Of a stretch of DNA of 51,564 bases, positions 3,121 to 51,564 are shown piece by piece. The translations under genes and the position numbers were made by a program. The notes beneath the pieces are model-generated. The model did no database searches. It was given only the letters and a program-made list of their open reading frames with translations, and was not told the origin of the DNA. Position 1 is the first letter of the stretch, and each line of letters starts with the position of its first letter. Source of the stretch: Candidatus Rokuibacteriota bacterium (GTDB taxonomy: Bacteria; JAUVQV01; DATDCY01); contig JANOHV010000224.1 of the NCBI GenBank assembly GCA_031406795.1, positions 1 through 51,564 of the forward strand, read 5' to 3'.

Positions 3121-3226
3121 CACCTTGAGGCCAGCATGATATATAGAGGGGGAAGGAACCATCGCCGCTCCGTGCCGTTTGCGGGTCGATGAGGGGGCAA
3201 CGTCCGCACAAGAAGAAGGAGGGGGC

Positions 3227-4762: not shown

Positions 4763-4816
4763 GAGCTGTTCTTGCAAGTCAACGACACAACGGCAGAGGA
4801 AAGGAGAACAACCACC

Positions 4817-5329: not shown

Positions 5330-5416
5330 GCAGGCGCGTTTCCCAGAGAGGAGGGAGCTTTCGAACCAAACGATCCCGATGGCACTGGCTGTCCAACCAT
5401 CAAGGAGGCTGGGCTC

Positions 5417-6355: not shown

Positions 6356-6364
6356 GAGGCCATC

Positions 6365-8548: not shown

Positions 8549-8798
8549 CCACGAAGTGTGCAGGACCCCGCCCGGGCAGCGCGGGCGATCGGGGATGCCG
8601 CGAGGCAAACCCGGGCGCTCCCGCTGCCCGGCGTGTTCTCCCGCACGGTCAGCTGCGGGACGGTCCGCAAGGTCCGCGGCCGCGGCCGCGACGCTTCCTC
8701 CCGGGTTATGCTACAGTTCCCACGCCATGCGACGAGTTCGATCGAACACGAGAGCCTGCGCTGCGGCGATCTGCCGGCGGGCCACGGGGACCTGAGCT

Positions 8799-13341: not shown

Positions 13342-13394
13342 AGACGCAAGGTAGGGAAACTCGCGGGTACGGTCAATGGCGGAAAGCGGGTATA

Positions 13395-14057
13395 TCAGGT
13401 GGCGATCAGCCCTCGTTTCGCGGCGTAGGCGGTCACGCCCGAGACGCTGTGCAGATCGAGCTTGCGCATCAGATTGCCCCGGTGTTTCTCGACCGTGCTC
13501 TGGCTGATGCACAGCTGATCGGCGATCTCACGGCTCTTGTACCCCTCGGCGATCAACTTCAGCACCTCGCGCTCGCGGGTCGTGAGCGTGTCCCAGGCGG
13601 TGACCTCCGGGGGCCGGGCCTGCTCGAGGTAGCCGTCGATGTCCGGCCTGGTCATCCGGGGGCTGATATAGCGCTGGCCGGCCAGGACGGCGCGAACGGC
13701 CGAGAGCAATTCGCCGTGCGAGGCGGTCTTGAGCACGTAGCCGGCGGCCCCGGCCCGCAACGCGTCGCGCACGTGCTCCTCGGTGTCGTGCATCGTCAGT
13801 GCGATGGCCTTGGTTTTCGGGTGCTGCCGGGTGATCTCCCGGAGTGCCTCCAGCCCGGTCATCTTCGGCATCGAGAGGTCCATGATGACCAGGTCCGGCT
13901 GGAGTCTTCGCGCCTGAGCGATGGCCTCCAGGCCATCGCCCGCCTCGCCCACGACCTCGAACTGGGGGTCGGCGACGAGCAGGGAGCGCAGCCCCTCGCG
14001 CAGCAGCGTATGGTCCTCGACCAGCAGGATGCGGTACTTTCCGCGACCGGCGCTCAC
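13395..14057 (-). CDS. NarL/LuxR-family DNA-binding response regulator
   Basis: ILLVEDHTLLREGL; MDLSMP; LTTREREVLKLIAEG...EIADQLCIS..TVEKHRGNLMRKL. Confidence 0.92.
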   Translation of the reverse strand: MSAGRGKYRILLVEDHTLLREGLRSLLVADPQFEVVGEAGDGLEAIAQARRLQPDLVIMDLSMPKMTGLEALREITRQHPKTKAIALTMHDTEEHVRDALRAGAAGYVLKTASHGELLSAVRAVLAGQRYISPRMTRPDIDGYLEQARPPEVTAWDTLTTREREVLKLIAEGYKSREIADQLCISQSTVEKHRGNLMRKLDLHSVSGVTAYAAKRGLIAT

Positions 14058-16610: not shown

Positions 16611-16807
16611 GGACCCCGCTCCTGTTCGGGCTGCAGCGCCGGCCGCCGTCAGATCCGCGCGGCAGGGCGTCCGGCTCGGCGACAATAGCCGATACCCGCG
16701 ATGACCGCCCCGCGGACCGCTCCCTCCGGCGGTGCACTTTACCGCACTTCTGCCCGGGTGAGAACCCTGGTCGCCGAACGACTGCGGCAATTATCGGGGG
16801 GACGCTC

Positions 16808-19750: not shown

Positions 19751-19811
19751 CGTGTGCACCTTTCTTTCCATGGTCCGTTGTCAGCAGCGAAGACGTACGC
19801 CCGAGCGCTCA

Positions 19812-21110: not shown

Positions 21111-21438
21111 TGTCGCTCCTCCCTTGCCTATTTTGTTCACTTGAGACACCCCTCAGTGCGGTTGTCCGGACCTTTCCCATTCGGGTGTTATTCATTGCTA
21201 AACTAAGCTTTGACTACGGAAATGACAATACTTATAACACACCATTCTTCAGGGGTGCCGCGCCAGGCGAGCGCGTCAGCGCAGATTCAGGCCGGCGTGG
21301 GCGGCGATGACGCGGACGGCAAGGGGCAGCGGAAAAACGCCCGAAAACCCGATCGCGGTTGCCCGCGCACGGCTCCCGGCGCCGCAGGACCGCAGGCAAG
21401 GGTTGCCGCCGGCCCCGCCGCTGTGCTACCTCTGTACC

Positions 21439-32568: not shown

Positions 32569-32604
32569 GGGGCGGGTGCAGCCAGCTTGAGCTGCACCCG
32601 CCCC
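32569..32604 (+). other. Intercistronic stem-loop after mnxG
   Basis: 14-bp stem GGGGCGGGTGCAGC / GCTGCACCCGCCCC with an 8-nt loop and no U-tract. Confidence 0.6.
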
Positions 32605-32622
32605 GTCATGCGAGGACAGACT

Positions 32623-35193: not shown

Positions 35194-35820
35194 ATGCGCC
35201 CCGGCCGGCGACTTCTCGGGATCTGCGCCGCGCTGGCGCTGCTGCTGGCGGCCCCGGTAACGGTTCCCGCTGCCGGCAGCACTGCCACCGCCCAGGCGCC
35301 CGAACCCAAGATCACCGGGCCGGGTCGGCCGTACTTCACCGATCTGCCGCTGGTGACGCAGCACGGCAAGGAAGTCCGGTTCTACTCGGACGTGCTCGAG
35401 GGCCGGGTCGTGCTGATCAGCGGTTTCTATATCAACTGCAAGACGATCTGCCCCCGGCAGAACCTGATCCTGTCGCGCGTCCAGAAGATGCTCGGCGAGC
35501 GTCTGGGCACGGACGCCTTCATCGTGTCGGTCACCGTGGATCCGCGGCGAGATACGCCGGACAAGGTCAAAGAGTACGCCGGGGCCTTCAGAGCGGGCCC
35601 CGGCTGGACGTTCCTGACGGGCAAGCCCGAAAACGTCGACTGGGTCAACTACCGTCTCGGGCAGTACCTGGAGGACCCGGAGCGTCACCGCGGGGTCTAC
35701 GTCATCGGGAATCTGAAAACCGGGCTCTGGGTGAAGGTCTCCCCGGACGCCGGGGCCGAAGAGCTGGTGCGGCAACTCGAGAGGGCAATAGCGGACGTGC
35801 CCGCCGCGGAAAAACCATGA
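35194..35820 (+). CDS. SCO1/SenC family copper chaperone
   Basis: FYINCKTICP; SVTVDPRRDTP; WTFLTG. Start could instead be GTG 35182 or 35191. Confidence 0.88.
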   Translation: MRPGRRLLGICAALALLLAAPVTVPAAGSTATAQAPEPKITGPGRPYFTDLPLVTQHGKEVRFYSDVLEGRVVLISGFYINCKTICPRQNLILSRVQKMLGERLGTDAFIVSVTVDPRRDTPDKVKEYAGAFRAGPGWTFLTGKPENVDWVNYRLGQYLEDPERHRGVYVIGNLKTGLWVKVSPDAGAEELVRQLERAIADVPAAEKP

Positions 35821-37436
35821 CCCGCCCGTCGTGGCCCCGACGCTCCCTTGCCCCCCTCTGGCCGATCCTCGCGGCGGCCCTCTGGCTGGCGGCCCCTGCG
35901 CTCTCCCGGGCCGGCGAGCTGACGCCGGCCCAGCAGCGGGGCCGACAGATCTACATGACCGGTCACAGCCCCTCGGGTAAGCCGATCGTGGCCTACTTCG
36001 GTGAAGAGGGCATCGAGCTGCCCGAAGAGGCCTCGACCTGTAGCGGCTGCCACGGCTACGACGGCACGGGCCGCCCCGAGAGCGGCGTGATCCCCTCCAA
36101 CGTGACGTGGGCGTACCTCACCAAGTCCTATGGCCACGCGCACCCCGACGGCCTGGAGCACCCGCCGTTCACGGTGGAGAACCTCAAGGACTACCTTGAG
36201 TCGGGTGTCTATCCCGGGGGTCGTCCCGGGGACCCGTCGATGCCCATCTACGAGATGTCCGCGCAGGACCTGGACGATCTGGTCGCATACATGAAGCTCG
36301 TGGGTGAGTACACGGACCCCGGAATCGGCGAGACCAGCGTCCGGGTCGGCACGCTGCTGCCGTCCCGGGGGCCGGCCGGCGAGATCGGGCAGGCCATGCG
36401 TGACATCCTGTTGGCCTACTTCGGCGAGATCAACCGGGCCGGGGGCATCTACGGCCGGAAGATCGAATTGGTCGTCCGGGAGGCGCCGGCCCGCGGCGAG
36501 TCCGTCTCCGCGGGGCTCCAGGCCTGGATCGCGGAGCAGGAGCCCTTCGCGCTGGTGAGCACGTTCGTCCCGGGGGCCGGCGCCGGGCTCACGGCCGCGG
36601 CGCCCGGTGCCGACCTGCCCCTCGTCGGGCCCTTCACCGTCTACCCGCTCGACAATTACGCCCTGAACCGGAGCACCTTCTATCTTTTCGCGGGGCTCCG
36701 GGAGCAGCTCCTGTGCCTGATCGACTTCGCGAAACGCCGCGCCGGGCTCGCGAGCCCCCGCGCGGCGCTGGTCTTCCCGGAGATCCCGGATCTCGAGCCG
36801 ATCGTCGCCTCGGTGGAGACCGCCGGCAGAGACAAGGGCTGGAGCGAGGTGCGCAGGGTGCCGTTTCCCGGCCCGGATTTCAACGCGGCGGGGACGGCCA
36901 CCCGGCTCAAGGAGGCCGGGGTCGAAGTCGTCGTCTTTCTCGGGGTCGAGCACCAGACCCGCTCTTTCCTGGAGGCCGCCGCCGCGCTGGAGTGGGCCCC
37001 CGTCGTGCTGACACCGGGCGTGCTGGCTGGAAAGGCCGCTTTCGACGCCCCGCCGAGTTTCGCGGGGCGCCTGTACCTCGCCTACCCCACGCTCCCGCAG
37101 GACCGGGAACCGCGGGCGTCGGGCGAACTCTCCCGGCTGATGAAGGAGCACGGGTTGTCGCCGACCCACCTCCAGGCCACGATCTCGGCCTACAGTTCGG
37201 CGAAACTTCTGGTCGAAGCCCTGCGGCTCTCGGGACGCGCGCTCAGCCGCGCGCAATTCGTCTCGGCGCTCGAAAAACTCTATCGGTTCGAGACGGGCCT
37301 GACGCCGCCGTTGACCTATACGCGCAACCGGCGCATCGGGGCCCTGGGCGCGTACGTGGCGACGCCGCAATCGGCAGCGGGGAAGGCGGGGGCGCTCGGA
37401 ACCGCCGAGTGGGTGGACCTCGAGGACCAGAAGTGA
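35817..37436 (+). CDS. Cytochrome c domain fused to a Leu/Ile/Val-type periplasmic ligand-binding domain
   Basis: Signal peptide; CSGCHG.DG.GRPE; MPIYEM; DPGIGETSVRVG; INRAGGIYGRKIELV. Confidence 0.82.
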   Translation: MTRPSWPRRSLAPLWPILAAALWLAAPALSRAGELTPAQQRGRQIYMTGHSPSGKPIVAYFGEEGIELPEEASTCSGCHGYDGTGRPESGVIPSNVTWAYLTKSYGHAHPDGLEHPPFTVENLKDYLESGVYPGGRPGDPSMPIYEMSAQDLDDLVAYMKLVGEYTDPGIGETSVRVGTLLPSRGPAGEIGQAMRDILLAYFGEINRAGGIYGRKIELVVREAPARGESVSAGLQAWIAEQEPFALVSTFVPGAGAGLTAAAPGADLPLVGPFTVYPLDNYALNRSTFYLFAGLREQLLCLIDFAKRRAGLASPRAALVFPEIPDLEPIVASVETAGRDKGWSEVRRVPFPGPDFNAAGTATRLKEAGVEVVVFLGVEHQTRSFLEAAAALEWAPVVLTPGVLAGKAAFDAPPSFAGRLYLAYPTLPQDREPRASGELSRLMKEHGLSPTHLQATISAYSSAKLLVEALRLSGRALSRAQFVSALEKLYRFETGLTPPLTYTRNRRIGALGAYVATPQSAAGKAGALGTAEWVDLEDQK

Positions 37437-39242: not shown

Positions 39243-42200
39243 ATGAAGAGTAGGAAGAGCCGCAGGTTAGGATTCCCGGTTGCCCTGTTCCCGTTGCTCG
39301 TCCTGCTCGTGGGATGGAGTGGCCTGGCTCAGGCGCAAGCGGTCCGGGCTCCGGTGAGCGGCGAAATACAGCTCGTCACGCTCAATAGCACGACCGATAT
39401 CTACTCCGGCGGAACCATCGTCGTCGGCGGACAGACCTACACCATCCCGCGGAATCTGCTGATCGACCTCCCCGCCAACCGACTGACGCTACAGCAGATC
39501 TTCGCGCAGGCTCCCGCCGCGTGCGTCGCCGCCGCCGAGTCCGGACTCGCGAAGAGCGATAGCTGCAATACCAGCGGTACGGGCGGATTCGCCACGATTT
39601 CCGCCAACCGCACCAGCAACCTCAATCTGATCGTCGGCGACATGTTCATCGAAAAGGGCGTCGAGGCGCTGACCGGCACCGTGACCTACATCGACTACGC
39701 CGGCGGCTATTATCGCGTGAACGGCATCCTCAACGATCCCGCCACCGGTGTCATGGTCCGCCTCAACGACCCCGAGGGGCGGCACACCCTGCAGCAGGGC
39801 CCCGGCTGCGCCGGCGGGCCGAACTGCAGCCCCGATCCGCGCTTCGCGCTCGACAAGGACAACTACACCAACCACTTCAGCAACGGCTACCCGCTGTGTA
39901 TTCCGAGCACGCAGCTGCGCACGTTTGCCGATGTTCTTGTCCCCCCGCTCGGCGTCACGACCGCTCAGGCCCTGGCCGACGGCACCGGCGACGTTCTCTG
40001 CCCGTCCACGAACCGGACGGGCCTCAATGCCACGGGGCAGGTGCCCGACTCGCGCAGATTCGCCCCGGTCATGCTCGGGGACCTCATCCAGGCGGAGGGG
40101 AACTTCGAGTCGATCGGCGGCGTCCGTTTCCTCTCGGCGCACACCTCGGGAGTCGGCTTTGCGCTGGGCTCCAAGCCCGATCTGGGCCAGCCGGACTATC
40201 TGACGATGGCCGAAGTCTTCCTGGACGCCATGGGTTTCCAGAACGCGCGGGCCCGGGCGCTCTTCATCGGCTTTTCGACCGGCAACACCGACATGCGCAT
40301 CTGGTCGCGCCACTGGGACCCGAGCACCAACGCAGTCCACGAGTTTCCGCTCGCCTCGACGGTCGGCTGTGACAACATCGCCGGTCCGGGAACGTGCACG
40401 GCGGTCGGGCTCGCCGCCGGCCCCGGCGGGAATATCTTCAAGATGCGCTACGATGTCGACTTTTTCGCCCCGGCCCTGATCGGCAAGAAGCCGGACCTCT
40501 ACCCGTGCGCCGTCATCAGGGCCGACCCCGAGTGGTCGCTGGCGCCCCCCCTGGTCTGCTCCGGCCCCGGGGGACAGAACATCGCGAACAACTTCGCCAT
40601 CATGAGCCCGATGCCGCACGAGATTCACGTGAAGAGCCGCAAGCAGACCGACAGCGTCAAGGTCGGCGGCACGCCGCTGGTCACGCTTGACATCCAGGGC
40701 AACGATTCGCCCAACGGCCAATATATCTTCCCGCTGGGCATCAATCTTGGCGGGATCGAGACGCCGGAGTTCGTCGAGGTCAACCTCAACCTGCTGGCCA
40801 CGCCCTGGCTCTTTACCGGGCTGCCCTGGAATCTCGACCGCCGGCTCGGCCCCGGCGGCTGCCAGAATGCCGGCGGGTGCGAGGGTACGCCGCAGCCCCT
40901 CGACCCCTTCCCGTTCGAGGGCCTCGATCCTCGCCTGCAGGAGCCGCTGCTTCCGACCGGCGGATACAACGACCCGGTCTACACGGCGAGCGCGCTGACC
41001 AGCGTCAGGGACCGCATCCTTTCGTTCGTTTCCGCCGCCGCCGGGAACTTCAACGGCAACGCCACTGTTCTCGCCTGGCCGCCGGTGAATCCGGCCGCCA
41101 TTCCGATCGTCGTTACGCCCCAGGCGATCGCCTGCGCGGCAGGGGGCGGGGGTGGGATCAACATACCGGTGACCGTCAACCACGACCCCGTGACCACGCC
41201 GTTTAATGTCCCCACGACCATCGACGTGCTGCTCAACGACACCGGCAGCTTCCTGCCGGGCACGGTGGTCGTCACCGGCGGGCTGAACCCCTCTTGGTCA
41301 GCCGTCGCTCAGACCGACGGCACGGTGATCTTCACGCCGGTCTTGGGCTTCTCCGGGCAGGCGGTCTTCACGTACACGGTCCAGGACCAGCTCGGGAACG
41401 TCTCGAGCGCGGCGACCGTGACGGTGACGGTCCTCCCCGGCGTCGGCAACACCGCGCCCATCGCAAACAACGACAATGCCGCGACGCTCGACACCACCCC
41501 GCTAATCATCCCCATTCTGGCCAACGACACCGACGAGGGGGCGCCGGTGATTCCGGCGAACGTGAATGTGACCGTGAACCTGCTGACCCAGCCCGCCCAG
41601 GGTGGCGCGGTGCTCAATGCCGACAAGACCGTGACTTACACACCCTTGCCCGGCATTTCGGCGAATGTGAGCTTCACGTACACGGTCAACGACGGGTCCC
41701 TGCTCAATAACATTTCGAACATCGCCACGGTTACCGTCGCCGTGACGGCGAACACGGCGCCGCTGCTGGCCCTGATCGCCGACCGGACGGTTGTCTCGGG
41801 GACGGCGATCAACGTGCTGGCGGTCGGCACCGACAGCCCGGGCGACACGCTCGTGTACTCGCTGGACACCGCGCCGGCCGGCATGACGATCAACCCCGCG
41901 ACGGGGCTGATCAGCTGGACGCCGGGCGGCGCCAACGTCGGCGTCAATCCCGTCACGGTCAGAGTGACCGACCTGGGCACGCTCTTCGCGACGCGGTCCT
42001 TCACCGTTACGGTGACCGGGGATCTCCCCAGAATCACGCTGGCCGAGTACCGGACCGGCTCGTTGCGGTTGCGGGTCGACGGCACGACGACCCTCCCCGG
42101 CGCGGTCATCACGATCTACCGCACGGCGACTCCCACCGGCGTGCCGCTGGGCACCGCGGTCGCCAACGTCGCGGGTGTCTGGACCTTCAGGCTGACCGCC

Positions 42201-42287
42201 GGCCCGGCGCCTGCCGCAGGTAGTTTCGTCAGCGCCGTTTCCAGTGGCGGCGGCACCGCGGCCGGTTTTGTGGTGAATGTCAGATAA
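39243..42287 (+). CDS. Large secreted protein: Cys-rich uncharacterised N-terminal domain + Ig/cadherin-like domains
   Basis: RBS AAGGAG; signal peptide (AQA); about 13 Cys in the first ~630 aa; IDVLLND, NTAPIANND, FTYTV domains; TAPAGMTINPATGLISWTP repeat. Confidence 0.8.
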   Translation: MKSRKSRRLGFPVALFPLLVLLVGWSGLAQAQAVRAPVSGEIQLVTLNSTTDIYSGGTIVVGGQTYTIPRNLLIDLPANRLTLQQIFAQAPAACVAAAESGLAKSDSCNTSGTGGFATISANRTSNLNLIVGDMFIEKGVEALTGTVTYIDYAGGYYRVNGILNDPATGVMVRLNDPEGRHTLQQGPGCAGGPNCSPDPRFALDKDNYTNHFSNGYPLCIPSTQLRTFADVLVPPLGVTTAQALADGTGDVLCPSTNRTGLNATGQVPDSRRFAPVMLGDLIQAEGNFESIGGVRFLSAHTSGVGFALGSKPDLGQPDYLTMAEVFLDAMGFQNARARALFIGFSTGNTDMRIWSRHWDPSTNAVHEFPLASTVGCDNIAGPGTCTAVGLAAGPGGNIFKMRYDVDFFAPALIGKKPDLYPCAVIRADPEWSLAPPLVCSGPGGQNIANNFAIMSPMPHEIHVKSRKQTDSVKVGGTPLVTLDIQGNDSPNGQYIFPLGINLGGIETPEFVEVNLNLLATPWLFTGLPWNLDRRLGPGGCQNAGGCEGTPQPLDPFPFEGLDPRLQEPLLPTGGYNDPVYTASALTSVRDRILSFVSAAAGNFNGNATVLAWPPVNPAAIPIVVTPQAIACAAGGGGGINIPVTVNHDPVTTPFNVPTTIDVLLNDTGSFLPGTVVVTGGLNPSWSAVAQTDGTVIFTPVLGFSGQAVFTYTVQDQLGNVSSAATVTVTVLPGVGNTAPIANNDNAATLDTTPLIIPILANDTDEGAPVIPANVNVTVNLLTQPAQGGAVLNADKTVTYTPLPGISANVSFTYTVNDGSLLNNISNIATVTVAVTANTAPLLALIADRTVVSGTAINVLAVGTDSPGDTLVYSLDTAPAGMTINPATGLISWTPGGANVGVNPVTVRVTDLGTLFATRSFTVTVTGDLPRITLAEYRTGSLRLRVDGTTTLPGAVITIYRTATPTGVPLGTAVANVAGVWTFRLTAGPAPAAGSFVSAVSSGGGTAAGFVVNVR

Positions 42288-42311
42288 GGGCATGGCGCCA
42301 AGGAAGGCTTT

Positions 42312-42572
42312 ATGGCACAGTATGAACGGCGCGAGGGCGGCTCGGACGACCTTGAGTGCACCGTCGCTCTCGCCGCCGAGCTCATCGAGTTGTCCGACAA
42401 AGGGGTCGGCGAGTGTCCGACCGAAGGCTGTCTCGTGCTGAACGGCGTATTGCTGGACTGCGGCTACCGGATTCGCGAATTAGCGGAACGGGAACTTCAG
42501 ATCCACCGCGCCGCCGCACCAACAACGCGGTATTGCGTCGAAGCATCACAACCGGGGAAAAGGGGGGCAGCA
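42312..42572 (+). CDS. Small hypothetical protein, in frame with the next gene and lacking a stop codon
   Basis: RBS AAGGAAGG; helical ~66-aa segment (LIELSDKG...CLVLNGVLLDCGYRIRELAERELQIH) followed by linker-like sequence up to ATG 42573. Confidence 0.45.
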
Positions 42573-44267
42573 ATGAAAAGCATGGCCAGAGGATTGGTAG
42601 CGGTAGTACTGTCGTTCTTGCTGTTTCCGGGTAGCGCTGCGGCAGCCCTGCTGCTGTCCGAAAGCTTCGAGACTGCCGTGCCCCCTGCCGGCTGGATCAA
42701 GCATAGTCCCGACGGCGGCACCGGCTGGAATCGTCAAACCAACGGCACGACGCCGATCCCCGGGTTTGAGAATCTCGTGGGTACGGTGACCACCCCCGCC
42801 GGCGGCGGAAACGGCGTCGCCTTTGCCACCTATCTGACCGGCGGAACCGTGCCGGACATCAACGGAGCCTTCCCCAACGACCAGTGGCTGGTCACTCCGG
42901 GAGTAGCCATAACGACGGCGGGAACGAATCTTACTTTCTGGGTCAGAAAATTCACCGATCTCATCGACAACCTGGAAGTCAAGATCTCCACGACCACCAA
43001 CGCACTGCCCAGCTTCACGACGAGCCTCGCCTTGTACGCGTTCGGCAATGTGCCGGAAGACTGGAACCAGAAAACGATCAGTCTCGACGCGTTTGTCGGC
43101 CAGACGGTCTTCATCGCCTTCAGAGAGTTCGTCGCCGACAATTTCTTCGACGGCGATGCGCTGTTTCTCGATCTGGTGACGATCGCCAGCCCGCTGCTGG
43201 ACCAGACGCTCACGGTGACCGGGCACGCCCCGGCGCGCGCGATGATCGGCGACATCTTCGCGGTGGCGGCGACGGCGACCTCGGGGCTGCCGGTTGCGAT
43301 CACGGCTACGGGTGCGTGCAGCGGCAGCGGCGCGGGTACCGCGCTGGTCACGATGACCGCTACCAACGGCAACTGTCTGGTCGCGTTCAACCAGGCCGGC
43401 GACACCAACTTTGGCGCCGCGCTGCCGGTGATGGAGCAAGTCCGCGCATTCGCGGCGAAGAACGATTTCGACGGGGACGGCCGCTCCGACCTCGGCGTTT
43501 ACAATCCGACCGGCGGCAACTGGTACCTGTTCAAGAGCGCGGAGGGATTCTCGGAGAGCCTGTTCGGCTACGCCGGAACAGTCCCCGTTCCGGGTGACTT
43601 CGACGGTGACGGCCGGGATGACATCGGGGTCTACGACGATCAGGGCGGCAAGTGGTTCCTGTCGAAGAGCCTGGAAGGGCACCAGGAGACGGACTTCGGC
43701 TACGCCGGGACGATCCCGGTGGTCGGGGACTTCGACGGCGACGGTCGGGATGACTTCGGCGTCTACGATGATGCCGGCGGCAGCTGGAACCTGTTCAAGA
43801 GCGCCGCAGGGTTCTTCCACACGACATTCGGCTTTGACGGAACGATCCCGGTCGTGGGAGACTTCGACGGTGACGGCCGGGATGACTTCGGCGTCTACTA
43901 TCCGACCGGCGGCAACTGGTATCTGTTCAAGAGCACGGAAGGGTTCTTCCAGACGGCGTTCGGCTACGCCGGCACGATCCCGGTCGTGGGAGACTTCGAC
44001 GGCGACGGCCGGGATGACATTGGCGTCTACTATCCGCCCGGCGGTAACTGGTACCAGTTCAAGAGCTCGGAGGGTTTCTCGCAGACGACGTTCGGCTACG
44101 CGGGGACCGAACCGGTGGTCGGAGACTTCGACGGCGACGGTCGGGATGACATCGGCGTGTACTATCCCCCCGGCGGCAACTGGTACCTGTTCAAGAGCGC
44201 GGAAGGTTTTTCGCAGACGACGTTCGGGTACGCGGGGACCATGCCGGTTGGCGGCACGCTGCGCTAA
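42573..44267 (+). CDS. Secreted cleaved-adhesin (choice-of-anchor J-like) domain protein with C-terminal FG-GAP/VCBS-like repeats
   Basis: RBS-like AAGGGGGG; signal peptide; LLSESFE..PPAGW, NDQWLVTP, ISLDAFVGQTVFIAFR; six DFDGDGRxD repeats; ends GGTLR. Confidence 0.78.
   Translation: MKSMARGLVAVVLSFLLFPGSAAAALLLSESFETAVPPAGWIKHSPDGGTGWNRQTNGTTPIPGFENLVGTVTTPAGGGNGVAFATYLTGGTVPDINGAFPNDQWLVTPGVAITTAGTNLTFWVRKFTDLIDNLEVKISTTTNALPSFTTSLALYAFGNVPEDWNQKTISLDAFVGQTVFIAFREFVADNFFDGDALFLDLVTIASPLLDQTLTVTGHAPARAMIGDIFAVAATATSGLPVAITATGACSGSGAGTALVTMTATNGNCLVAFNQAGDTNFGAALPVMEQVRAFAAKNDFDGDGRSDLGVYNPTGGNWYLFKSAEGFSESLFGYAGTVPVPGDFDGDGRDDIGVYDDQGGKWFLSKSLEGHQETDFGYAGTIPVVGDFDGDGRDDFGVYDDAGGSWNLFKSAAGFFHTTFGFDGTIPVVGDFDGDGRDDFGVYYPTGGNWYLFKSTEGFFQTAFGYAGTIPVVGDFDGDGRDDIGVYYPPGGNWYQFKSSEGFSQTTFGYAGTEPVVGDFDGDGRDDIGVYYPPGGNWYLFKSAEGFSQTTFGYAGTMPVGGTLR
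43461..44267 (+). repeat. FG-GAP-like cassette A: six ~132-bp (44-aa) repeats
   Basis: Unit GDFDGDGRDDIGVYYPPGGNWYLFKSxEGFxQTxFGYAGTxPVV; period 132 bp (e.g. 43593 to 43725). Confidence 0.9.
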
Positions 44268-44338
44268 CATAATCGTCGTCACATGCTGAAAGGATTACCA
44301 GACGTGGCTGCATTTAGTCGAACTGGAGGGGGAGAGAG

Positions 44339-45745
44339 ATGGAAGGGATAAAGAGGCGGGACTTTCTCAAGTACGGCTTGAGCGGCGCGGCGGCACTCGT
44401 CGTGGGCACGAAGATGCCCTGGCTGATGAAGAACGAGGCCTATGCGGCGGTCCATACCCAGACCCTCAATTTTCACATCACCGATGCCGTGAAAGACATG
44501 GTGACGCACAACGCCATCAACTCCGCGCAATGCTATTTCTGGATCTTCAAGGAAGACACTTTCCCGGCCGAGTGTCCCGGGCCCAACATCTTCACCACGC
44601 AGGGGGATGTCGTCCGCATCGTCATCACCAACGACCTGGACGCGCCGCATTCGTTCTTCATCCCGGGCATGTTCGACAGCGGCCCCATCGCCCCGGGCGC
44701 CAAGGTCACGAAGTTCTTCACTGCGACCAAGTCCGGGTCCTTCCTGTATCACGACAACCTGAACGAGCCGGTGAACCGGGCGATGGGGCTGCATGGCGCC
44801 TTCATCGTCATGCCCCGGGCGGCTGCGGCCGGGCACAAGTTCACGCCGTACGATAATCCGACGCCGATGATCCAGAAACTGTTCGACGAACTCGGCACCG
44901 CGGCCCACTGGCCCGGCCTGCCCTGGGAGCAGGGCGATCCGGCAACCGACACGCAGGCATTCCGGCAGTATGTCTGGGTGACGCACGAAGCCAGCCCCGT
45001 CCTGTTCGCAGAGGTGGGCAACGCCGCGCCCGGAACGGGCTTCCGCATCCCGGCGAACTTCGTGAACGCCATCTTCAACGACCCCTATGCCGACACCTTC
45101 AATACCGGGGTCTTCAACCGCAAGCCCCACTTCTTCACGATCAACGGACAATCCGGCCACTTCGCGCACAACAACCCGTTCATCTGCCCGAACCTCCGCG
45201 TGGGCGAACCGTGCGTCATCCGGGTCCTGGGCGCCGGGGTTAACACCCATTCCATGCACATCCACGCCAACCACGTCTACGTTCTCTCGCTGGACAACCA
45301 GCTGTCCAACGACCTCTGGTGGGTGGACACCATGACCAACAGCCCGCTGCGCGGCTTCGACTGGCTGGTGCCCTACATGCGGCCGCCCGACATCCCCAAT
45401 GTCCGCGGGATCGGCCTGGCGGATCCCGGGCTGGTAACGCTCGCCGGCGGCACGACCTGGCCGCCGAATGAAGAGCTGAACACGTTCTTCCCGCCGATCG
45501 GCACGCTGGCCGACCCGCTTAACCCGCTCTCCCCGGATATCTCGGTGCAGCTCTCCCCCCTCTGTTTTCCGATGCACTCCCACACCGAGGCGTCCCAGAC
45601 CTCCCAGGGCGGCAGCTACAACCTCGGCTTGATTTCCGGGATGAACTTTATCGGTGACCGCAACACCCCGGGCGGCGTCACGACCTTCCCGCTGATGCAC
45701 ACGGACAATCACGGTCCCGATAAGACGGGACCGGCGGCCGGCTAG
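44339..45745 (+). CDS. Tat-exported two-cupredoxin-domain multicopper oxidase-like protein
   Basis: KRRDFLK twin-arginine signal; PGPNI..QGD; FLYHD; FFTING; HSMHIHANH; PMHSH. Confidence 0.8.
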   Translation: MEGIKRRDFLKYGLSGAAALVVGTKMPWLMKNEAYAAVHTQTLNFHITDAVKDMVTHNAINSAQCYFWIFKEDTFPAECPGPNIFTTQGDVVRIVITNDLDAPHSFFIPGMFDSGPIAPGAKVTKFFTATKSGSFLYHDNLNEPVNRAMGLHGAFIVMPRAAAAGHKFTPYDNPTPMIQKLFDELGTAAHWPGLPWEQGDPATDTQAFRQYVWVTHEASPVLFAEVGNAAPGTGFRIPANFVNAIFNDPYADTFNTGVFNRKPHFFTINGQSGHFAHNNPFICPNLRVGEPCVIRVLGAGVNTHSMHIHANHVYVLSLDNQLSNDLWWVDTMTNSPLRGFDWLVPYMRPPDIPNVRGIGLADPGLVTLAGGTTWPPNEELNTFFPPIGTLADPLNPLSPDISVQLSPLCFPMHSHTEASQTSQGGSYNLGLISGMNFIGDRNTPGGVTTFPLMHTDNHGPDKTGPAAG

Positions 45746-45780
45746 CGTCAAGCAGCGCAAACAGAAGAAGGAGAGAGATC

Positions 45781-47079
45781 ATGTCGGTCGCAATCCCAGC
45801 GCATCACATATTTCGCAAGTCGGTGGTCGGCGACGAGAATGAGTGGGTCAAGATGTTCGACCCGCCCACGGAGAGCCCGGCGACCCCGGAGAATCTGTCC
45901 CCGACGAACCCCGTGCCGGCGTTCGTCGCCGCCACCGTTCCCGGGGCCACGAATGCGGTACCCAATACGGTGGAAGTCGGCCTGATGCACGGGCGGCGCA
46001 TCACGATGTGGGACGGGAAACAGGTGATGTTCTTTCTGATCGACAATGGGGATGTTCCCGCTACCGCGGCGGGCACGTTTCCGGGCCCGACCCTCCGGGT
46101 GCCCCGGGGAGTGGTCTTCCACGCCGACACCAGGGGCGCCGGGCCGCCCCCGCACACCATCCACTGGCATGGCATCGAGCCGACCCCCATGAACGACGGG
46201 GTCGGGCACTGTTCGATGGAGATCGGGCAGTACACCTACCAGTTTCAGCCCAACTTCATCGGCAGCTATTTCTACCACTGTCACCGCAACACCGTGCAGC
46301 ATTTCGAATTCGGCCTCTACGGTTTTCTGATCATCGAGCCGCCCGACGCGTATGCCCAGCAGAATCCGGCCCTCCCGAACTACGCCGGCGGCTATCCCCG
46401 GCGGACCGCGGCCAACCTCGCCAAGTTTCCGCAGTTCCCCGGTTTCGTCGCCGGCGCGCTGACCAGCGGCGACCCCCACGCGATGACCGTTCCGTACGAC
46501 ACGGAGGCTCTCTGGGTCATCGATGACCGGGACTCCACCTGGAGCGACAACATGAGCAATGCCCGGGACACCATGCCGGCGCACGGCACCCAGCCCGGTA
46601 TCAACGACGTATTCACCAAAGGGGATCTGCACGATTTCAACGCCGATTATTTCTTTGTCACCGGCGTCCCCTTCCCGGCTCCGGTGGGGAGCACGATTTC
46701 CTGCGCGCCAAACGTGGTCGTTCCCGCCGAACTGAACAGCGGCGTTGTCGGGATGCAAGTCTCGATCAATTCCCAGGTCAACAAGACCATCCTGGTCCGG
46801 TGCCTCTGTGCGTCGTACGTCAGCCTCAGGGTGAGCTTCCCCGTCGACATCACGATCATCGCCTGGGACGGCCGGGCCCTCGGGGTGCCGCCTTTCGGCA
46901 ATTACAGCGAACCCTATGTGGTGAAGGCCGGAACGCAGATCGCGCTCAGTACGGCCCGGCGCTTTGATGCGCTGATCCGATCGGCAACGCCGGTGAACTC
47001 CTTCGCCAATGTCGAGTTCATCAACAACCGGGGCGGCCAGACGCTGTTGAACGGCCGGATTCCCATTGTGATTGCTTAG
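45781..47079 (+). CDS. Multicopper oxidase-like protein without a signal peptide
   Basis: FPGPTLRV; PHTIHWHG; NDGVG; YFYHCHRNTVQHFEFGLYG; second domain lacks His clusters. Confidence 0.8.
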   Translation: MSVAIPAHHIFRKSVVGDENEWVKMFDPPTESPATPENLSPTNPVPAFVAATVPGATNAVPNTVEVGLMHGRRITMWDGKQVMFFLIDNGDVPATAAGTFPGPTLRVPRGVVFHADTRGAGPPPHTIHWHGIEPTPMNDGVGHCSMEIGQYTYQFQPNFIGSYFYHCHRNTVQHFEFGLYGFLIIEPPDAYAQQNPALPNYAGGYPRRTAANLAKFPQFPGFVAGALTSGDPHAMTVPYDTEALWVIDDRDSTWSDNMSNARDTMPAHGTQPGINDVFTKGDLHDFNADYFFVTGVPFPAPVGSTISCAPNVVVPAELNSGVVGMQVSINSQVNKTILVRCLCASYVSLRVSFPVDITIIAWDGRALGVPPFGNYSEPYVVKAGTQIALSTARRFDALIRSATPVNSFANVEFINNRGGQTLLNGRIPIVIA

Positions 47080-47110
47080 CAGAAATGCCAAAGAAGGCGG
47101 GGGGGTTGCC

Positions 47111-49726
47111 ATGTGTATAGAGAGCTTCTCAAGAAGAGCGATGCTCGTTTCTGCTCTCCTGTTCGTCGTGGGTTTCCCGTTGCTCTTTCCGGGACCTGCG
47201 GCGGCGGGGATCTCGTGGGATAAAAGAGCACGGCTGCCGCAGGGGAACCATCTGTCGGCAACGGCCGACGGCGCCGGCCTGATCGTTGCGGTGGGGGACG
47301 GGGGGACCATTCAGACCTCTCCGGATGGGATCGCCTGGACCCTGCGGAATTCGGGTGTTCTCGTGAACCTAACCGGACTGGCCTTCGCCAACGGCCTCTT
47401 CGTTGCGACCGGGAGTAACGGCACGATTCTGACCTCTCCGGATGGGGTGATTTGGACTGCCCGAACATCAGGGGTCTGGGTCGAACTCTTTGACGTCGCT
47501 TTCGGCAACGGCGTCTTCGTCGCGGTGGGAGGACACGGAACCGCACTGACCTCCACGGACGGGATCACCTGGGTCCCCCAGAATACCTTTCTCCTGAATG
47601 ACCTCGTCGCCGTGGCCTTCGGCAATGGCAGATTCGTCTCCGTGGGAATCGTCGGCAACATTGTGACCTCTTTCGACGGGGTGGTCTGGAGTTCGCAGAC
47701 CGTCGGGGTCCCGAACAACGAATTCATCCCGAACGATCTGACGGGAATCACGTTCGGGAATGGTACGTTTGTCGCGGTCGGGAGTCTGGGACTCATCCTG
47801 ACCTCCACGGACGCGGTGATCTGGACCGTGAGAGCCACGCTGAGCGCATTCGATCTCTCCGATGTGGCCTTCGGCAACAACACCTTCGTGGCCGGGGGAG
47901 GGTTCGGCACGCTGCTTTCGTCGACGAATGGAACAAACTGGACTCCCCGGGCATCCGGCACGACGAATGTGATCAACGCCGTCGACTTCGTTGCCGCCGG
48001 ATTCGTTGCCGTGGGGGATCTGGGCACGACCCTGACCTCGCCGACCGGAGTGGCGTGGTCCCTGCGCTCCTCGGGAAGCCCGGAGTGGTTCTTCGGAGTC
48101 GCGGACGGCGTCGTTCTTGGCAACGAAGTCCTGGTGGGAGTCGGGAGCGGCGGTATGATCGCCACCTCAACCGATGGGGTGACCTGGACCGCGCAGACCT
48201 CGGGGACCACCGAGGTTCTCTTCGGCGTCACTTCAGGAGTTGTTGCGGGGAACACTCTCTTCGTGGCCGTCGGGAGTGCCGGCACGGTCCTGACCTCTTC
48301 GAACGGGGTGAACTGGACCCCGCGAGCGTCAGGAACCGCGCTGGATCTGCTGGGAGTCGCCTTCGGCAACAACACCTTCGTTGCGGTGGGGCTGTTCGGC
48401 GCTATCTCGACCTCGGCCGATGGGACGGCTTGGGCTGCGCAGGTGCTGGGGAGTGACTTCCACGCAGTCACGTTCGGCAACGGCATCTTCGTCGCGGTAG
48501 GAAATGCCGGCGCGATCTCGACCTCGCCCACCGGCGCGACCTGGACGCTCGTCAACTCGGGGACCGGGCAGGATCTCTTCGGCGTCGCGCATGGCAGCGG
48601 CGACTTCGTGGCGGTCGGAGCGGGAGGCACCATTCTGACCTCGCCCGCCGGCGTGATCTGGACGCCTCGGGCATCGGGGACGGTGCACGGCCTCTATGGC
48701 ATCGCGCTGGGCAGCCACGAATTCCTGGCCGTCGGCGGATTCGGGACGGTTCTGACTTCCGTGAACGGCATCAGTTGGGCTCCCGAGGATTTCGCCAAGG
48801 CTGCTTCCACCCAATTGTTGGGCATCACCTTCGCGGGAGCCAGCTTCGTCACCGTGGGTAGTGCGGGCACGATCATGCAATCCGCGGTCCCGGCGTTGAT
48901 CGCAGCCCTGAACCAGCGGAACGATTTCGACGGCGATGGCCGCTCGGATATCGGCGTCTACTATCCGCCAGGCGGCAACTGGTACATCTTCAACAGCTCC
49001 ACCGGGTTCTTCCAGACGACGTTCGGGTATGAAGGGACGCTGCCGATCACCGGCAACTTCGACGCCGACGCGATGAGCGACATCGGCGCCTACTATCCCC
49101 CCGGCGGCAACTGGTACATGTTCAAGAGCGCGGATGGTTTCATGCAGACAACGTTCGGCTACGAGGGGACGATCCCGGTGGTCGGGGACTTCGACGCCGA
49201 CGGCATCAGCGACATCGGCGCCTACTATCCGCCCGGCGGCAACTGGTATTTCTTCAAGAGCACGGAAGGGTTCTCGCAGACGACCTTCGGCTACGCCGGG
49301 ACGATCCCGCTGGTCGGGGATTTCGACGGCGACGGCAGGAGCGACATCGCCGCCTACTATCCGCCCGGCGGCAACTGGTACATGTTCAAGAGCACGGAAG
49401 GGTTCTTCCAGACGGCCTTCGGCTACGACGGGACGATCCCGGTGGTCGGGGACTTCGACGGCGATGGGCGCGATGACATCGGCGTCTACTATCCGCCCGG
49501 CGGCAACTGGTACCTGTTCAAGAGCACGGAAGGGTTCTTCCAGACGACTTTCGGCTATGCGGGGACGGAACCGGTGGTCGGGGACTTCGATGGGGACGCG
49601 CGGGATGACATCGCCGTCTACTACCCCGCCGGTGGCAACTGGTACCAGTTCAAGAGCACGGAAGGGTTCTTCCAGACGACCTTCGGGTTCGAAGGGACGA
49701 TCCCGATCGGCGGCACGCTGCGGTAG
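47111..49726 (+). CDS. Secreted protein with ~14 BNR/YCF48-like propeller repeats and a C-terminal FG-GAP-like cassette
   Basis: Signal peptide (contains SRRAML); 14 repeats of L..VAFGN..FVAVG..GTILTS.DG..W; six DFDxDG repeats; ends GGTLR. Confidence 0.82.
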   Translation: MCIESFSRRAMLVSALLFVVGFPLLFPGPAAAGISWDKRARLPQGNHLSATADGAGLIVAVGDGGTIQTSPDGIAWTLRNSGVLVNLTGLAFANGLFVATGSNGTILTSPDGVIWTARTSGVWVELFDVAFGNGVFVAVGGHGTALTSTDGITWVPQNTFLLNDLVAVAFGNGRFVSVGIVGNIVTSFDGVVWSSQTVGVPNNEFIPNDLTGITFGNGTFVAVGSLGLILTSTDAVIWTVRATLSAFDLSDVAFGNNTFVAGGGFGTLLSSTNGTNWTPRASGTTNVINAVDFVAAGFVAVGDLGTTLTSPTGVAWSLRSSGSPEWFFGVADGVVLGNEVLVGVGSGGMIATSTDGVTWTAQTSGTTEVLFGVTSGVVAGNTLFVAVGSAGTVLTSSNGVNWTPRASGTALDLLGVAFGNNTFVAVGLFGAISTSADGTAWAAQVLGSDFHAVTFGNGIFVAVGNAGAISTSPTGATWTLVNSGTGQDLFGVAHGSGDFVAVGAGGTILTSPAGVIWTPRASGTVHGLYGIALGSHEFLAVGGFGTVLTSVNGISWAPEDFAKAASTQLLGITFAGASFVTVGSAGTIMQSAVPALIAALNQRNDFDGDGRSDIGVYYPPGGNWYIFNSSTGFFQTTFGYEGTLPITGNFDADAMSDIGAYYPPGGNWYMFKSADGFMQTTFGYEGTIPVVGDFDADGISDIGAYYPPGGNWYFFKSTEGFSQTTFGYAGTIPLVGDFDGDGRSDIAAYYPPGGNWYMFKSTEGFFQTAFGYDGTIPVVGDFDGDGRDDIGVYYPPGGNWYLFKSTEGFFQTTFGYAGTEPVVGDFDGDARDDIAVYYPAGGNWYQFKSTEGFFQTTFGFEGTIPIGGTLR
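48920..49726 (+). repeat. FG-GAP-like cassette B: six ~132-bp repeats
   Basis: Same unit and same total length (807 bp including the stop) as cassette A. Confidence 0.9.
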
Positions 49727-49753
49727 CACGCGCCATCGAGAATTTCATGGAAC

Positions 49754-49790
49754 TCTCGCCCCCGCGGCGCCCACGCCGGCGGGGGCGAGA
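49754..49790 (+). terminator. GC-rich stem-loop after the gene ending at 49726
   Basis: Stem TCTCGCCCCCGC / GCGGGGGCGAGA; no clear U-tract. Confidence 0.45.
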
Positions 49791-49933
49791 CTCGTGCCTG
49801 TCGCTTTGAACTCGACGGCGATCGGGCCGAGTCGGAGGGCCTGGTGAACCCGGCCGAATGAAGACAACGGTCAAGCTGAACGTCAGATCATGCAACGCTA
49901 CTGGGAATCTGGCATTGGTTGGAGGAGAGAGAC

Positions 49934-51564
49934 ATGAACGCGTCGAAAGCAGTTGTTGTAGCGGAGAGCCAGCGGAGGCCAAGGAGTACGGGAAGGGCAA
50001 TCCCCACGTTCCTGGCGGTCCTGGCGGTTGCGCTGGGTGGACTGTTCCCGTCCGGAAGCGCACAGGCGGCTCTGAATGCGGTCAGCCCCCTGAGGAATTT
50101 CGGGAACTTCCCGCTCTGGTATCGTGATCTCGCCGCCGGCGGGAGTCAGGTGCAATTGTGTCTGGGACTGAACCCGGATGGTACCGGGCTGCCTGACCCC
50201 CTCTGCGTGTTGCCTCCCCTGGCCCCGGGAAATATCAGTTTTCCGGCCAACTTCCCCGACGAGGCATTCTATTGGATTGCGGAAGCCGAGCATGCCGCCA
50301 TCGGTACCGGCGGCGGCCGTGCCCGGCTTCGTTTCGCGCTGGAGGCCGCATTTGGCACGGGAACCCCCGTGGCCGGCCAACAGATGACTTTCTTGCGGAT
50401 CAATTTGTTTCCGATAGCAGGACTTGCCCCGAGCAGCACCTATACGGTGTTGCATCCGTATGGCACGTTTGATTTTACGACTGAAGCAGATGGCAGAACG
50501 ACTATCACCGGTGGCCAGGCATTCAGGGCGGAAGACGGAGCTATTCCCATCGGTATCGTCGCGACCGCCTTTGAAATACTGCTTCCCGCGACGAATACCA
50601 ATATCTCCAGTCTGTTGAAGTGGGACGTGGGGGCGCCGGCAGGATATCTGGGAGACGCACTTACCCCGCATCTGGTAACGGGGGGTCCGCTGAGCAACAC
50701 GTTTACGATTGCGGCAGCAGCAGGTCCCGCATTGACCGCGGATATCGATCCGACGCTCGCCGGGGTGCAGACTTCGATCACGACGGGTCTCTTCGTGGTT
50801 TCGGGGAAGCTCTTCGCGCCGACACTTACCCAGGTGACGCCCGTCCCGACACCTACCAACGTCACCACGCCGAATTACAGCTTTACGACGAACGACGTCG
50901 GCACGATCACCTACGGCGGTGACTGCACCAGCCCGACGACGGCTGCGGTCCTGGGGACCAACACGGTGACTTTCAATCCTCTGGCGGATGGAGTTCATGC
51001 CAACTGCACGATTACGGTCACCAATGCTGCAGGAAATGCCAGCAACATCTTGAGCGTGGCACCCTTCACGATCGACACGGTGCCTCCCGTCGCGACGCAG
51101 GTGACGGCGGTCCCGACCCCGACCGGAGACAGCACGCCGACCTACACCTTCAACACGAACGAAGCCGGAACCATCGTGATCGGGGGAGGCTGCGCGAGTG
51201 CGACGACGGCTGCAACGGCAGGCAATAACACAATTGCCTTCCGCGCTCTGAAAGCCGGGCTGCACACCGGCTGCCTGATCACCGTGGTCGATCTGGCGAC
51301 GAACGTCGGCAACACGCTGAATGTGCCGGCCTTCACGGTCAGAAACGTGAAGAACGATTTCGACGGCGACGTTCGCTCGGACATCGGCTGCTACTTCCCG
51401 CCCGGGGGCGACTGGTTCGAGTTCAGGAGCGCGGAGGGATTCATCCAGACGAAGTTCGGGTTTGCCGGGACGCTGCCGATCACCGGCGACTTCGACGCCG
51501 ACGGCAAGGCCGACATCGGCGCCTACAACCCGCCCGGCGGCAACTGGTACCTCTTCAAGAGCAC
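49934..51564 (+). CDS. Secreted protein (3' partial): third paralogue of the FPxWYxD domain + Ig-like domains + FG-GAP-like cassette
   Basis: Not in the ORF track (no stop inside the window). RBS GGAGGAG; manual translation MNASKAVV...SAQA-ALNAVSP..GNFPLWYRD..VQLCL..FPDEAFYW..LEAAF..QMTFLR..HPYG; KNDFDGDVRSDIG begins in the same frame near 51350. Confidence 0.82.
   Translation, partial: MNASKAVVVAESQRRPRSTGRAIPTFLAVLAVALGGLFPSGSAQAALNAVSPLRNFGNFPLWYRDLAAGGSQVQLCLGLNPDGTGLPDPLCVLPPLAPGNISFPANFPDEAFYWIAEAEHAAIGTGGGRARLRFALEAAFGTGTPVAGQQMTFLRINLFPIAGLAPSSTYTVLHPYGTFDFTTEADGRTTITGGQAFRAEDGAIPIGIVATAFEILLPATNTNISSLLKWDVGAPAGYLGDALTPHLVTGGPLSNTFTIAAAAGPALTADIDPTLAGVQTSITTGLFVVSGKLFAPTLTQVTPVPTPTNVTTPNYSFTTNDVGTITYGGDCTSPTTAAVLGTNTVTFNPLADGVHANCTITVTNAAGNASNILSVAPFTIDTVPPVATQVTAVPTPTGDSTPTYTFNTNEAGTIVIGGGCASATTAATAGNNTIAFRALKAGLHTGCLITVVDLATNVGNTLNVPAFTVRNVKNDFDGDVRSDIGCYFPPGGDWFEFRSAEGFIQTKFGFAGTLPITGDFDADGKADIGAYNPPGGNWYLFKS

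Follow-up and report, generated by a model that had tools for sequence, protein, structure and literature searches.

A pair of paralogous two-domain multicopper oxidase-like proteins with complementary copper-ligand half-sets: a probable heteromeric oxidase

The window analysed here is the whole contig JANOHV010000224.1 of a Candidatus Rokuibacteriota bacterium (assembly GCA_031406795.1, 51,564 nucleotides). Two consecutive genes on its plus strand, A (44339..45745, an open reading frame (ORF) of 468 aa) and B (45781..47079, an ORF of 432 aa), encode two-domain subunits resembling multicopper oxidases (MCOs). A bears a twin-arginine translocation (Tat) signal and B is signal-less. In multicopper oxidases all copper ligands are supplied by one chain or by identical chains. 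With a probability of about 0.75 we read A and B as the subunits of an obligately heteromeric MCO, which would have a single trinuclear copper cluster between the subunits and a single type-1 site, B being exported as a Tat hitch-hiker. An earlier sequence-only reading of this DNA had already suggested an A/B complex of this kind.

The putative copper ligands of A lie in domain 2. The motif HSMHIHANH (45248..45274, residues 304-312, located by script) comprises H304, H307, H309 and H312, of which H307 and H309 are putative trinuclear-cluster ligands. A second His pair is found in MHSH (45572..45583, residues 412-415; H413, S414 and H415), where position 414 is the one at which a type-1 Cys would sit. 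None of the Cys residues of A (65, 79, 283, 292 and 409) is flanked by two His, and domain 1 contains no HxH pair at all. The type-1 region of domain 1 (44645..44797) is remodelled, with the motifs PHSFF (H104), YHD (D139) and GLHG (H152). In an alignment of the A and B profiles PHSFF is aligned with PHTIHWH of B, and D139 occupies the position of the type-1 Cys of B. A is thus a putative contributor of the domain-2 half of the cluster ligands, without a type-1 Cys.

B has the reverse arrangement. Its domain 1 contains HTIHWH (46153..46170, residues 125-130) and HCHRNTVQHFEFGL (46276..46317, residues 166-179), the latter of the form HCH-x5-H-x4-L, and no His is found in its last 144 residues (domain 2). 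H125, C167 and H174 are putative type-1 ligands with L179 in the axial position, and H128, H130, H166 and H168 are putative cluster ligands, so that B would provide the type-1 site and the domain-1 half of the trinuclear cluster. The sequence-only reading had assigned the Tat signal and the two domain-2 motifs to A, with no type-1 Cys, and the two domain-1 motifs to a B lacking a signal and His clusters in domain 2; a script found all of these features at the same places.

Word-indexed searches (E <= 0.001) returned 960 relatives of B and 677 of A, and the best 120 of each were aligned. H307, H309, H312, H413 and H415 were invariant in the 121 A homologues, and H304 was present in 119. H125, H128, H130, H166, C167, H168, H174 and L179 were invariant in 120/120 B homologues. 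The complete HCH-x5-H-x4-L pattern occurred in all 120 B sequences, and HCH in none of the 121 A sequences. Because the motifs are invariant in 120-121 homologues, the complementarity of the His half-sets can be taken not to be due to chance.

The alignments also corrected the picture of A in two respects. MHSH is the minority form, since position 414 is Asp in 109 and Ser in 12 homologues, including the protein of this window. Domain 1 is not featureless but contains H104 and D139 in 121/121 and H152 in 120/121 sequences. The former type-1 positions of A are both remodelled yet invariant (44645-44797: H104, D139, H152; 45248-45583: H304, D/S414, E417, Q420), and H104/D139/H152 and H304/D-or-S414/E417 may form new metal or substrate sites. 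In B, H114 and H143 are invariant as well, and residues 143-146 contact A in the complex model described below; these are possible additional metal or substrate sites. A Leu in the axial position raises the potential of type-1 copper. The axial Leu that had been singled out in B is indeed present (L179), but it is not special to this pair: HCHRNTVQHFEFGL aligns with HCH...H...L of 3gdc and 7rab, two solved two-domain oxidases that likewise have Leu at this position.

The full set of eight His plus the type-1 His-Cys-His on one polypeptide was found in neither protein. A has two His pairs and no type-1 Cys, B has two His pairs and the type-1 set, and only both chains together hold the full set. 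In two-domain MCOs (2dMCOs) two protomers contribute residues to each trinuclear cluster, and the type designation follows the location of the type-1 site, as described in the available text of PMC13151041. Since the cluster spans two protomers, only a contact between domain 1 of B and domain 2 of A would have all eight His; by sequence, a contact between the two domains of A or between the two domains of B would hold just four. Because each of these contacts has four of the eight, neither chain is expected to complete a trinuclear cluster with its own copies. In this respect the pair differs from homotrimeric two-domain oxidases, as the sequence-only reading had maintained.

Membership in the multicopper oxidase superfamily is clear from the Pfam gathering scores of both proteins: 41.3 bits (A) and 53.7 bits (B) for Cu-oxidase_3 (cut-off 21), and 24.2 and 21.5 bits for Cu-oxidase_2 (cut-off 20.4). 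Searches of PDB sequences identified type-C two-domain oxidases and NirK as neighbours of A and B (1.5e-14 for B against 3gdc, 1.1e-08 for A against 2zwn). AlphaFold monomer models were obtained with a mean predicted local distance difference test score (pLDDT) of 83.2 and a predicted TM-score (pTM) of 0.86 for B, and 75.5 and 0.78 for A. The best structural matches of the B model were 3g5w, 2zwn, 3gdc and 7rab (target-normalised TM-score 0.60-0.64), and those of the A model 2zwn, 3g5w, 7rab and 3gdc (0.59-0.62). Identity in the fold alignments to these type-C enzymes was 12-19%, and the A model superposed on their protomers with a root mean square deviation of 4.3-4.4 A over 320-348 columns. 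The models predict that A and B each consist of two cupredoxin domains with a fold like that of the solved 2dMCOs. The defining feature of type C, a type-1 site in the N-terminal domain, is found in B (H125, C167, H174, L179); A has D139 at the Cys position.

The profiles of A and B were colinear over 238 columns, including an unusual inter-domain linker of about 100 residues (hhalign probability 92.4%, E 5.2e-07). This colinearity, linker included, indicates that the two are paralogues, descended by all appearances from one ancestor of the same architecture. By the same comparison B appears to have retained the type-1 site together with the His pairs of domain 1 and to have lost those of domain 2, and A to have done the reverse. 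The description of the enzyme as "split" had to be given up accordingly: A and B are two complete two-domain paralogues, not the halves of one gene. A split gene or frameshift was also excluded by the ribosome-binding site that each gene has of its own and by the recurrence of the layout in 77/80 loci (see below). The spacer between A and B is 35 nt long and contains the Shine-Dalgarno-like AAGGAGAGAG (45767..45776, plus strand), read directly 5-14 nt ahead of the B ATG. A scan of 42000-50200 gave no promoter-like site, and five terminator-like sites in the same interval against 5.9 expected are uninformative.

Known families of copper oxidases were considered and rejected. The NCBIfam scores were 23.5 (A) and 30.4 (B) for CueO (cut-off 525), 21.1 and 42 for CopA(PcoA) (cut-off 478.95), and far under the cut-offs for the laccase and ascorbate oxidase equivalogs. 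CueO and CopA have three domains and a Met-rich segment; A and B have two domains and no Met-rich run, with a Met content of 3.0% and 2.5%, respectively. A protein-atlas look-up of B returned generic multicopper-oxidase clusters only, and the relatives are named just "multicopper oxidase domain-containing protein" or "FtsP/CotA-like" in the source databases. No fused A-B form was found among proteins of 820-2340 aa in a search with A, which is weak evidence.

The association of the two genes was tested by a genome scan of isolates and metagenome-assembled genomes, with the B alignment as the sole bait. The scan matched 189 stretches, 162 of them coding for a relative, and the analysis was confined to the best 80 loci. 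In 76 of the 80, B is immediately preceded by A in the same orientation, as judged by tblastn matches of at least 200 aa, and in one more (L025) the end of A can still be recognised at the contig edge, giving 77/80. One locus (L051) has only 377 nt upstream of B and is uninformative on pairing. Two Bacillaceae loci (L013 and L018) contain B without A within 8 kb. The expectation that homologues are always paired was thus borne out in 77 loci and failed in these two. The genome of L018 also holds a complete A-B pair (L012). Both of these B genes (L013 8001-9416, L018 7974-9398) encode an acidic Glu/Asp/His-rich insertion after the N-terminal arm, and the one of L018 is followed by CopC and a multicopper protein. 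In three loci (L066, L068 and L078) A or B is in pieces, owing to assembly errors or pseudogenes. According to the record titles the hosts of the pair belong to Nitrospirota, Thermodesulfobacteriota/Geobacterales, Bacillaceae, Chloroflexota, Planctomycetota, Actinomycetota and Myxococcota, and include the archaeon Methanoperedens. The divergence between any two A proteins is correlated with that between their B partners (r = 0.75 for 60 clean pairs; none of 999 permutations reached this r), which points to co-inheritance rather than to contact.

The two proteins differ consistently at their N-termini. A begins with a twin-arginine signal peptide (residues 1-36, 44339..44446; MEGIKRRDFLKYGLSGAAALVVG...AYA/AV), in which RRDFLK (residues 6-11) is followed by the uncharged GLSGAAALVVG and by AYA ahead of AV, the cleavage site being read by eye. 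All elements of a Tat substrate (RR motif, uncharged region, AxA site) are found in A. It scored 16.8 bits with the twin-arginine signal model TIGR01409 (cut-off 16.7), and 19 bits with Pfam TAT_signal, which is under the cut-off of 22.7. An RR motif was present within the first 40 residues of 114/121 A homologues. The seven exceptions are either gene calls cut short at the N-terminus or proteins in which an extended leader places the motif further in.

B homologues never show a signal. Their N-terminal arm (residues 1-40, 45781..45900 in this window) is conserved throughout the family, starts at the same Met (consensus MS...P...IPRRSV.G.EGEW.KMFDPP) and continues with charged residues, without an h-region. 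The family motif PRRSV.G superficially resembles a twin-arginine motif; in this window it reads FRKSVVG (RK, not RR; 45811-45831, residues 11-17), and in the complex model this stretch pairs as a strand with residues 49-53 of A. A signal-bearing N-terminal extension of B was excluded, since the six long forms inspected (732-898 aa) are extended at the C-terminus only, five of them by long repetitive segments. Related long forms have CarboxypepD_reg and other Ig-like Pfam domains. Such C-terminal domains are of an extracytoplasmic type, which fits an extracytoplasmic location of B; forms carrying these surface-type domains lack a signal as well. We infer, on good grounds, that B is exported by hitch-hiking on A. 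The proposal of Tat hitch-hiking in the sequence-only reading agrees with the RR motif in nearly all A homologues, the signal-less B arm docked on A in the model, and the long B forms.

A complex of A (residues 37-468) and B, each with its own alignment, was modelled in three runs along with three controls. The complex score (ipSAE) was 0.95 in each run, and the best of the three controls gave 0.00. The ipSAE mark is reached by 116/157 solved complexes and by 2/215 mismatched pairs, a calibration that is rough here as custom alignments were used. The runs shared at least 94% of the contacts, with a partner pLDDT of at least 93. The modelled interface is very large (381-393 contacts) and involves residues 301-305, 307, 309-312 and 415-418 of A and 128, 130-137, 143-146 and 169-173 of B, which are the His motifs of the two proteins or their immediate neighbours. 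The contacts of lowest error were those between A 49-53 and residues 8-10 of the N-terminal arm of B. Those parts of the monomer models that are disordered (A 349-361 and 417-430, B 134-144) map to the modelled interface, as expected for folding on binding. Together with the complementary invariant ligands and the pairing, the model favours the A/B complex with an inter-subunit cluster that had been proposed.

Under this interpretation, duplication of a type-C-like two-domain oxidase would have given A and B, and each copy would have lost complementary copper sites. B would retain the blue type-1 site (H125, C167, H174 and the non-coordinating L179) and H128/H130 and H166/H168 in domain 1, and A the pairs H307/H309 and H413/H415 in domain 2. 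Domain 1 of B is predicted to pack on domain 2 of A like neighbouring protomers of homotrimeric two-domain oxidases, and the eight His brought together in this way could bind a single trinuclear copper cluster. Electrons of the substrate would pass to the type-1 copper of B and through the H-C-H triad to the cluster, where O2 would be reduced to water. A and B would assemble, and probably take up copper, in the cytoplasm, and the folded complex would be exported by Tat on the twin-arginine signal of A, with B as the hitch-hiker.

Several points weigh against this interpretation. The results, all obtained in silico, are the invariant motifs, the paired genes, the paralogy and folds of the two proteins, and a high-confidence interface model; from these we infer copper content, O2 reduction, the export route and the 1:1 stoichiometry. 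B occurs without a nearby A in the two Bacillaceae loci. Three of the putative ligands (H166, H168 and H413) are absent from the list of confident contacts. There is no solved heteromeric relative, the modelled packing resembles that of the solved homotrimers, and the predictor may recall the domain-1/domain-2 packing of the latter, in which case the high score would indicate likeness and not binding. The absence of a signal peptide in B is judged from the missing Tat motif and the layout of the n- and h-regions; in a hydropathy scan the family medians were 1.67 (A) and 1.18 (B), but A and B of this window were not separated (1.56 vs 1.53). The link to copper homeostasis comes from 32/80 loci counted without a background control, and neither A nor B has a Met-rich segment. 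Many of the organisms with the pair are strict anaerobes, in which an O2-reducing enzyme is unexpected. Finally, the ring of a trimer has six domains, which two chains of two domains each cannot complete, and AB, A2B, AB2 or higher assemblies are possible.

The last point leads to an alternative in which A and B function physiologically as a heterotrimer (A2B or AB2) or an even larger assembly (such as A3B3) instead of a 1:1 complex, the modelled interface being one of several. The solved relatives are trimers or multiples of trimers (3gdc, 2zwn, 3g5w and the dodecamer 7rab, as given in the available part of PMC13151041), and the domain arrangement in the A and B models superposes on the protomers of the trimeric relatives. 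However, a very large surface is buried in the modelled heterodimer alone, and it includes domain 1 of A and domain 2 of B, the domains that would face the third protomer in a trimer. Moreover, A and B are each about 130 residues longer than their relatives of about 300 residues, a combined excess of roughly one protomer, and no additional gene accompanies the pair consistently, the next commonest neighbour family occurring in 23/80 loci. We regard a heterotrimer or higher assembly as unlikely.

Action of the A-B pair on a substrate other than O2, for example a nitrogen oxide as in NirK-type enzymes, would suit anaerobic hosts, and many hosts are anaerobes or nitrate reducers according to the record titles. 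NirK chains are frequent among the sequence and fold matches of A and B, and an archaeal two-domain-type copper enzyme with a nitrogen-oxide product has been reported, going by the title of PMC11761707. Against this, four HxH pairs are the signature of a trinuclear cluster and not of the three-His type-2 site of NirK, and the NirK model TIGR02376 scored only 28 bits with A and 18.2 bits with B (cut-off 296.3). NirK itself was rejected on these grounds, and a non-O2 substrate appears improbable.

It is very improbable that A is a periplasmic copper-binding or scaffold protein (degenerate, SufI/FtsP-like) and B a separate cytoplasmic blue-copper protein, the two being neighbours by shared regulation: degenerate MCO-fold proteins exist, SufI (2uxt) is among the structural matches of A, and the missing signal of B and its occurrence alone in two loci would fit, but such an arrangement leaves eight invariant His in exactly fitting half-sets unexplained, makes B forms with surface-type C-terminal domains senseless in the cytoplasm, and runs counter to the complex score of 0.95 vs 0.00 and to the pairing in 77/80 loci across phyla and archaea.

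Returning to the heteromeric oxidase, its closest known counterparts are the type-C 2dMCOs, represented by the Arthrobacter MCO 3gdc, the metagenome laccase mgLAC (2zwn), the Nitrosomonas europaea blue copper oxidase (3g5w) and the Marinithermus MCO 7rab. As far as they are described in PMC13151041, these enzymes likewise have two cupredoxin domains and a cluster across the subunit interface. Their N-terminal domain has the type-1 site and two His pairs, as in B, and their C-terminal domain two His pairs, as in A. They differ in having all ligands in one chain and in forming homotrimers with three clusters, whereas in A-B the ligands are divided between paralogous chains. A and B are also longer, owing to the linker of about 100 residues and, in B, the N-terminal arm, and only one chain of the pair has a signal peptide.

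Other heteromeric oxidases resemble A-B less closely. The Mnx complex of Bacillus sp. PL-12 (MnxG, MnxE and MnxF) is likewise a hetero-oligomeric bacterial MCO, but MnxG is a complete oxidase, and MnxE and MnxF are, according to the available text of PMC5622069, small accessory proteins without similarity to characterized proteins; a catalytic ligand set is not divided between paralogous MCO subunits. IOX of Iodidimonas (IoxA and IoxC) is an extracellular MCO purified as at least two proteins, with SCO1/SenC genes in its cluster, a feature shared with 9/80 A-B loci. By the description accessible in PMC9415286, IoxA alone has all four copper-binding regions and no function is known for IoxC, which sets the enzyme apart from A-B. 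The fungal "novel laccases" with a small subunit (POXA3-type; PMC10443355, as far as available) are heterodimeric laccase-like enzymes as A-B would be. Their large subunit is a complete three-domain laccase and their small subunit a non-MCO protein without copper ligands, and they are eukaryotic secretory enzymes, not Tat substrates. In the accessible descriptions of these documented cases (Mnx, IOX, fungal) the MCO subunit carries its own copper sites. With respect to export, a signal-less subunit is carried by an RR-bearing partner in PaoABC (available text of PMC4273604) and, as proposed, in periplasmic NxrAB (available text of PMC3578206). Those are molybdo, iron-sulfur or flavin enzymes, unlike the copper pair A-B. 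In open-access papers and preprints we found no heteromeric two-domain oxidase or split MCO and no copper oxidase among the described Tat hitch-hikers, and the Methanoperedens literature within the same scope names only other oxidases.

A more far-reaching proposal, which we put just short of even odds, is that A-B founds an unrecognised and widespread quaternary class of MCOs, an obligate heterodimer of paralogues with one type-1 site and one cluster. In such a class the additional residues of each chain, about 130, would replace the third protomer, the pair would be a living intermediate on the evolutionary route proposed to lead from symmetric trimers of two-domain chains to asymmetric oxidases with a single cluster, and it would be the first Tat-hitch-hiking copper oxidase. 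If the heteromeric reading is true, an oxygen-reducing cluster requiring two different paralogous chains would be a new assembly principle, and a natural case of subfunctionalisation after duplication leading from symmetric to asymmetric oxidases. A copper enzyme would join the list of Tat hitch-hikers. Hundreds of Geobacterales, Nitrospirota, Bacillaceae, Chloroflexota and Methanoperedens proteins that databases now list as "multicopper oxidase domain-containing protein" would be inactive when expressed singly, and screens for laccases or metal oxidases would miss A-B enzymes unless both genes were co-expressed.

The wider family was surveyed by a profile search with the A alignment against 1.84 billion representatives, which gave 2810 matches at E <= 0.001, 674 at <= 1e-10 and 162 at <= 1e-30. 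Among the 150 matches listed, 89 were 330-620 aa long, and 75 of those had an RR motif. At least two HxH were present in the C-terminal 55% of 71 of these 75 listed proteins, any HxH in the N-terminal 45% of eight, and HCH in 36. Half-site Tat-targeted two-domain proteins may thus be common. In one locus (L021, 15971-17350) a divergent A' stands beside a normal A-B pair. It has 34% identity, a Tat signal, HSPHFH and MHCH (Cys for Asp/Ser), and is directly followed by a signal-less ORF whose start resembles the B arm and within which the locus ends.

In the 80 loci, ORFs within 8 kb were called crudely and clustered into neighbour families, and the counts, which have no background control, are for that reason lower bounds. 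Proteins related to copper handling included CusB-like (at least 14 loci), CusA-like (at least 10), YtkA plus SCO1/SenC (at least 9), CsoR-like repressor (at least 5) and CopC (at least 5) neighbours, and at least one of these occurred in at least 32 loci. MauG/di-haem peroxidase-like proteins were found in at least 23 loci, PKD-domain proteins in at least 17, Peripla_BP_6 proteins in at least 12 and a very large second multicopper protein in at least 10. These neighbours (CusAB-like pumps, CsoR, CopC, SCO1/SenC, di-haem peroxidase-like proteins and the large multicopper protein) point to copper handling or extracytoplasmic electron transfer, mostly in anaerobes. The ligand pattern is that of an O2-reducing multicopper oxidase, and our reading commits us to a predicted extracytoplasmic oxidase tied to one of these two processes. 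That the substrate is a metal ion or a redox protein of copper homeostasis or extracytoplasmic electron transfer is a tentative suggestion, to which we give well under even odds.

The plus strand of the window holds the same neighbour set as other A-B loci. At 27649-32529 (+) a secreted protein of 1626 aa is encoded, which contains Cu-oxidase_3 and Cu-oxidase_2 domains as well as one HCH and several HxH. Over about 985 aa it shares 30% identity (E 1e-83) with a 1390-aa multicopper protein of Bacillaceae encoded just downstream of A-B, and its relatives occur in 10/80 A-B loci, including Methanoperedens. Two further genes of the set encode a beta-propeller protein with a weak YtkA-like match (32587-34554, +) and a cytochrome c fused to a Peripla_BP_6 domain (35817-37436, +). 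In Geobacterales and Nitrospirota loci the Peripla_BP_6 and YtkA plus SCO1/SenC proteins come after A-B.

In the window A-B is surrounded by FG-GAP and Ig-domain proteins. The genes flanking the pair (42312-44267 and 47072-49726, both +) encode secreted proteins, in both of which the C-terminal half consists of nearly identical FG-GAP-type units in tandem (GDFDGDGRDDIGVYYPPGGNWYLFKS...), and a third run of this type begins in the ORF at 49919-51562. The ORF starting at 47072 (TTG) overlaps the B stop by 8 nt; a later ATG would leave a short gap. The ORF at 49919-51562 (+), which runs off the window, has no Pfam match, and its relatives are found in 17/80 A-B loci. The Neobacillus version has PKD domains, and the protein often comes after the large multicopper protein.

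Further away, a cluster of sensor histidine kinases with GAF/PAS domains is encoded at 8838-10910 (+), 12049-13512 (-), 14157-16790 (-) and 21307-23421 (+), along with a 960-aa Ig/He_PIG/PKD-repeat protein (16889-19771, -) and a radical SAM/SPASM protein (2034-3110, +). The window DNA has 65-69% G+C; long antisense ORFs are common in it, and such ORFs also misled the crude ORF picker in high-G+C loci. An ORF of 1839 aa without a Pfam match (3089-8608, -) is overlapped by plus-strand ORFs of 312-727 aa.

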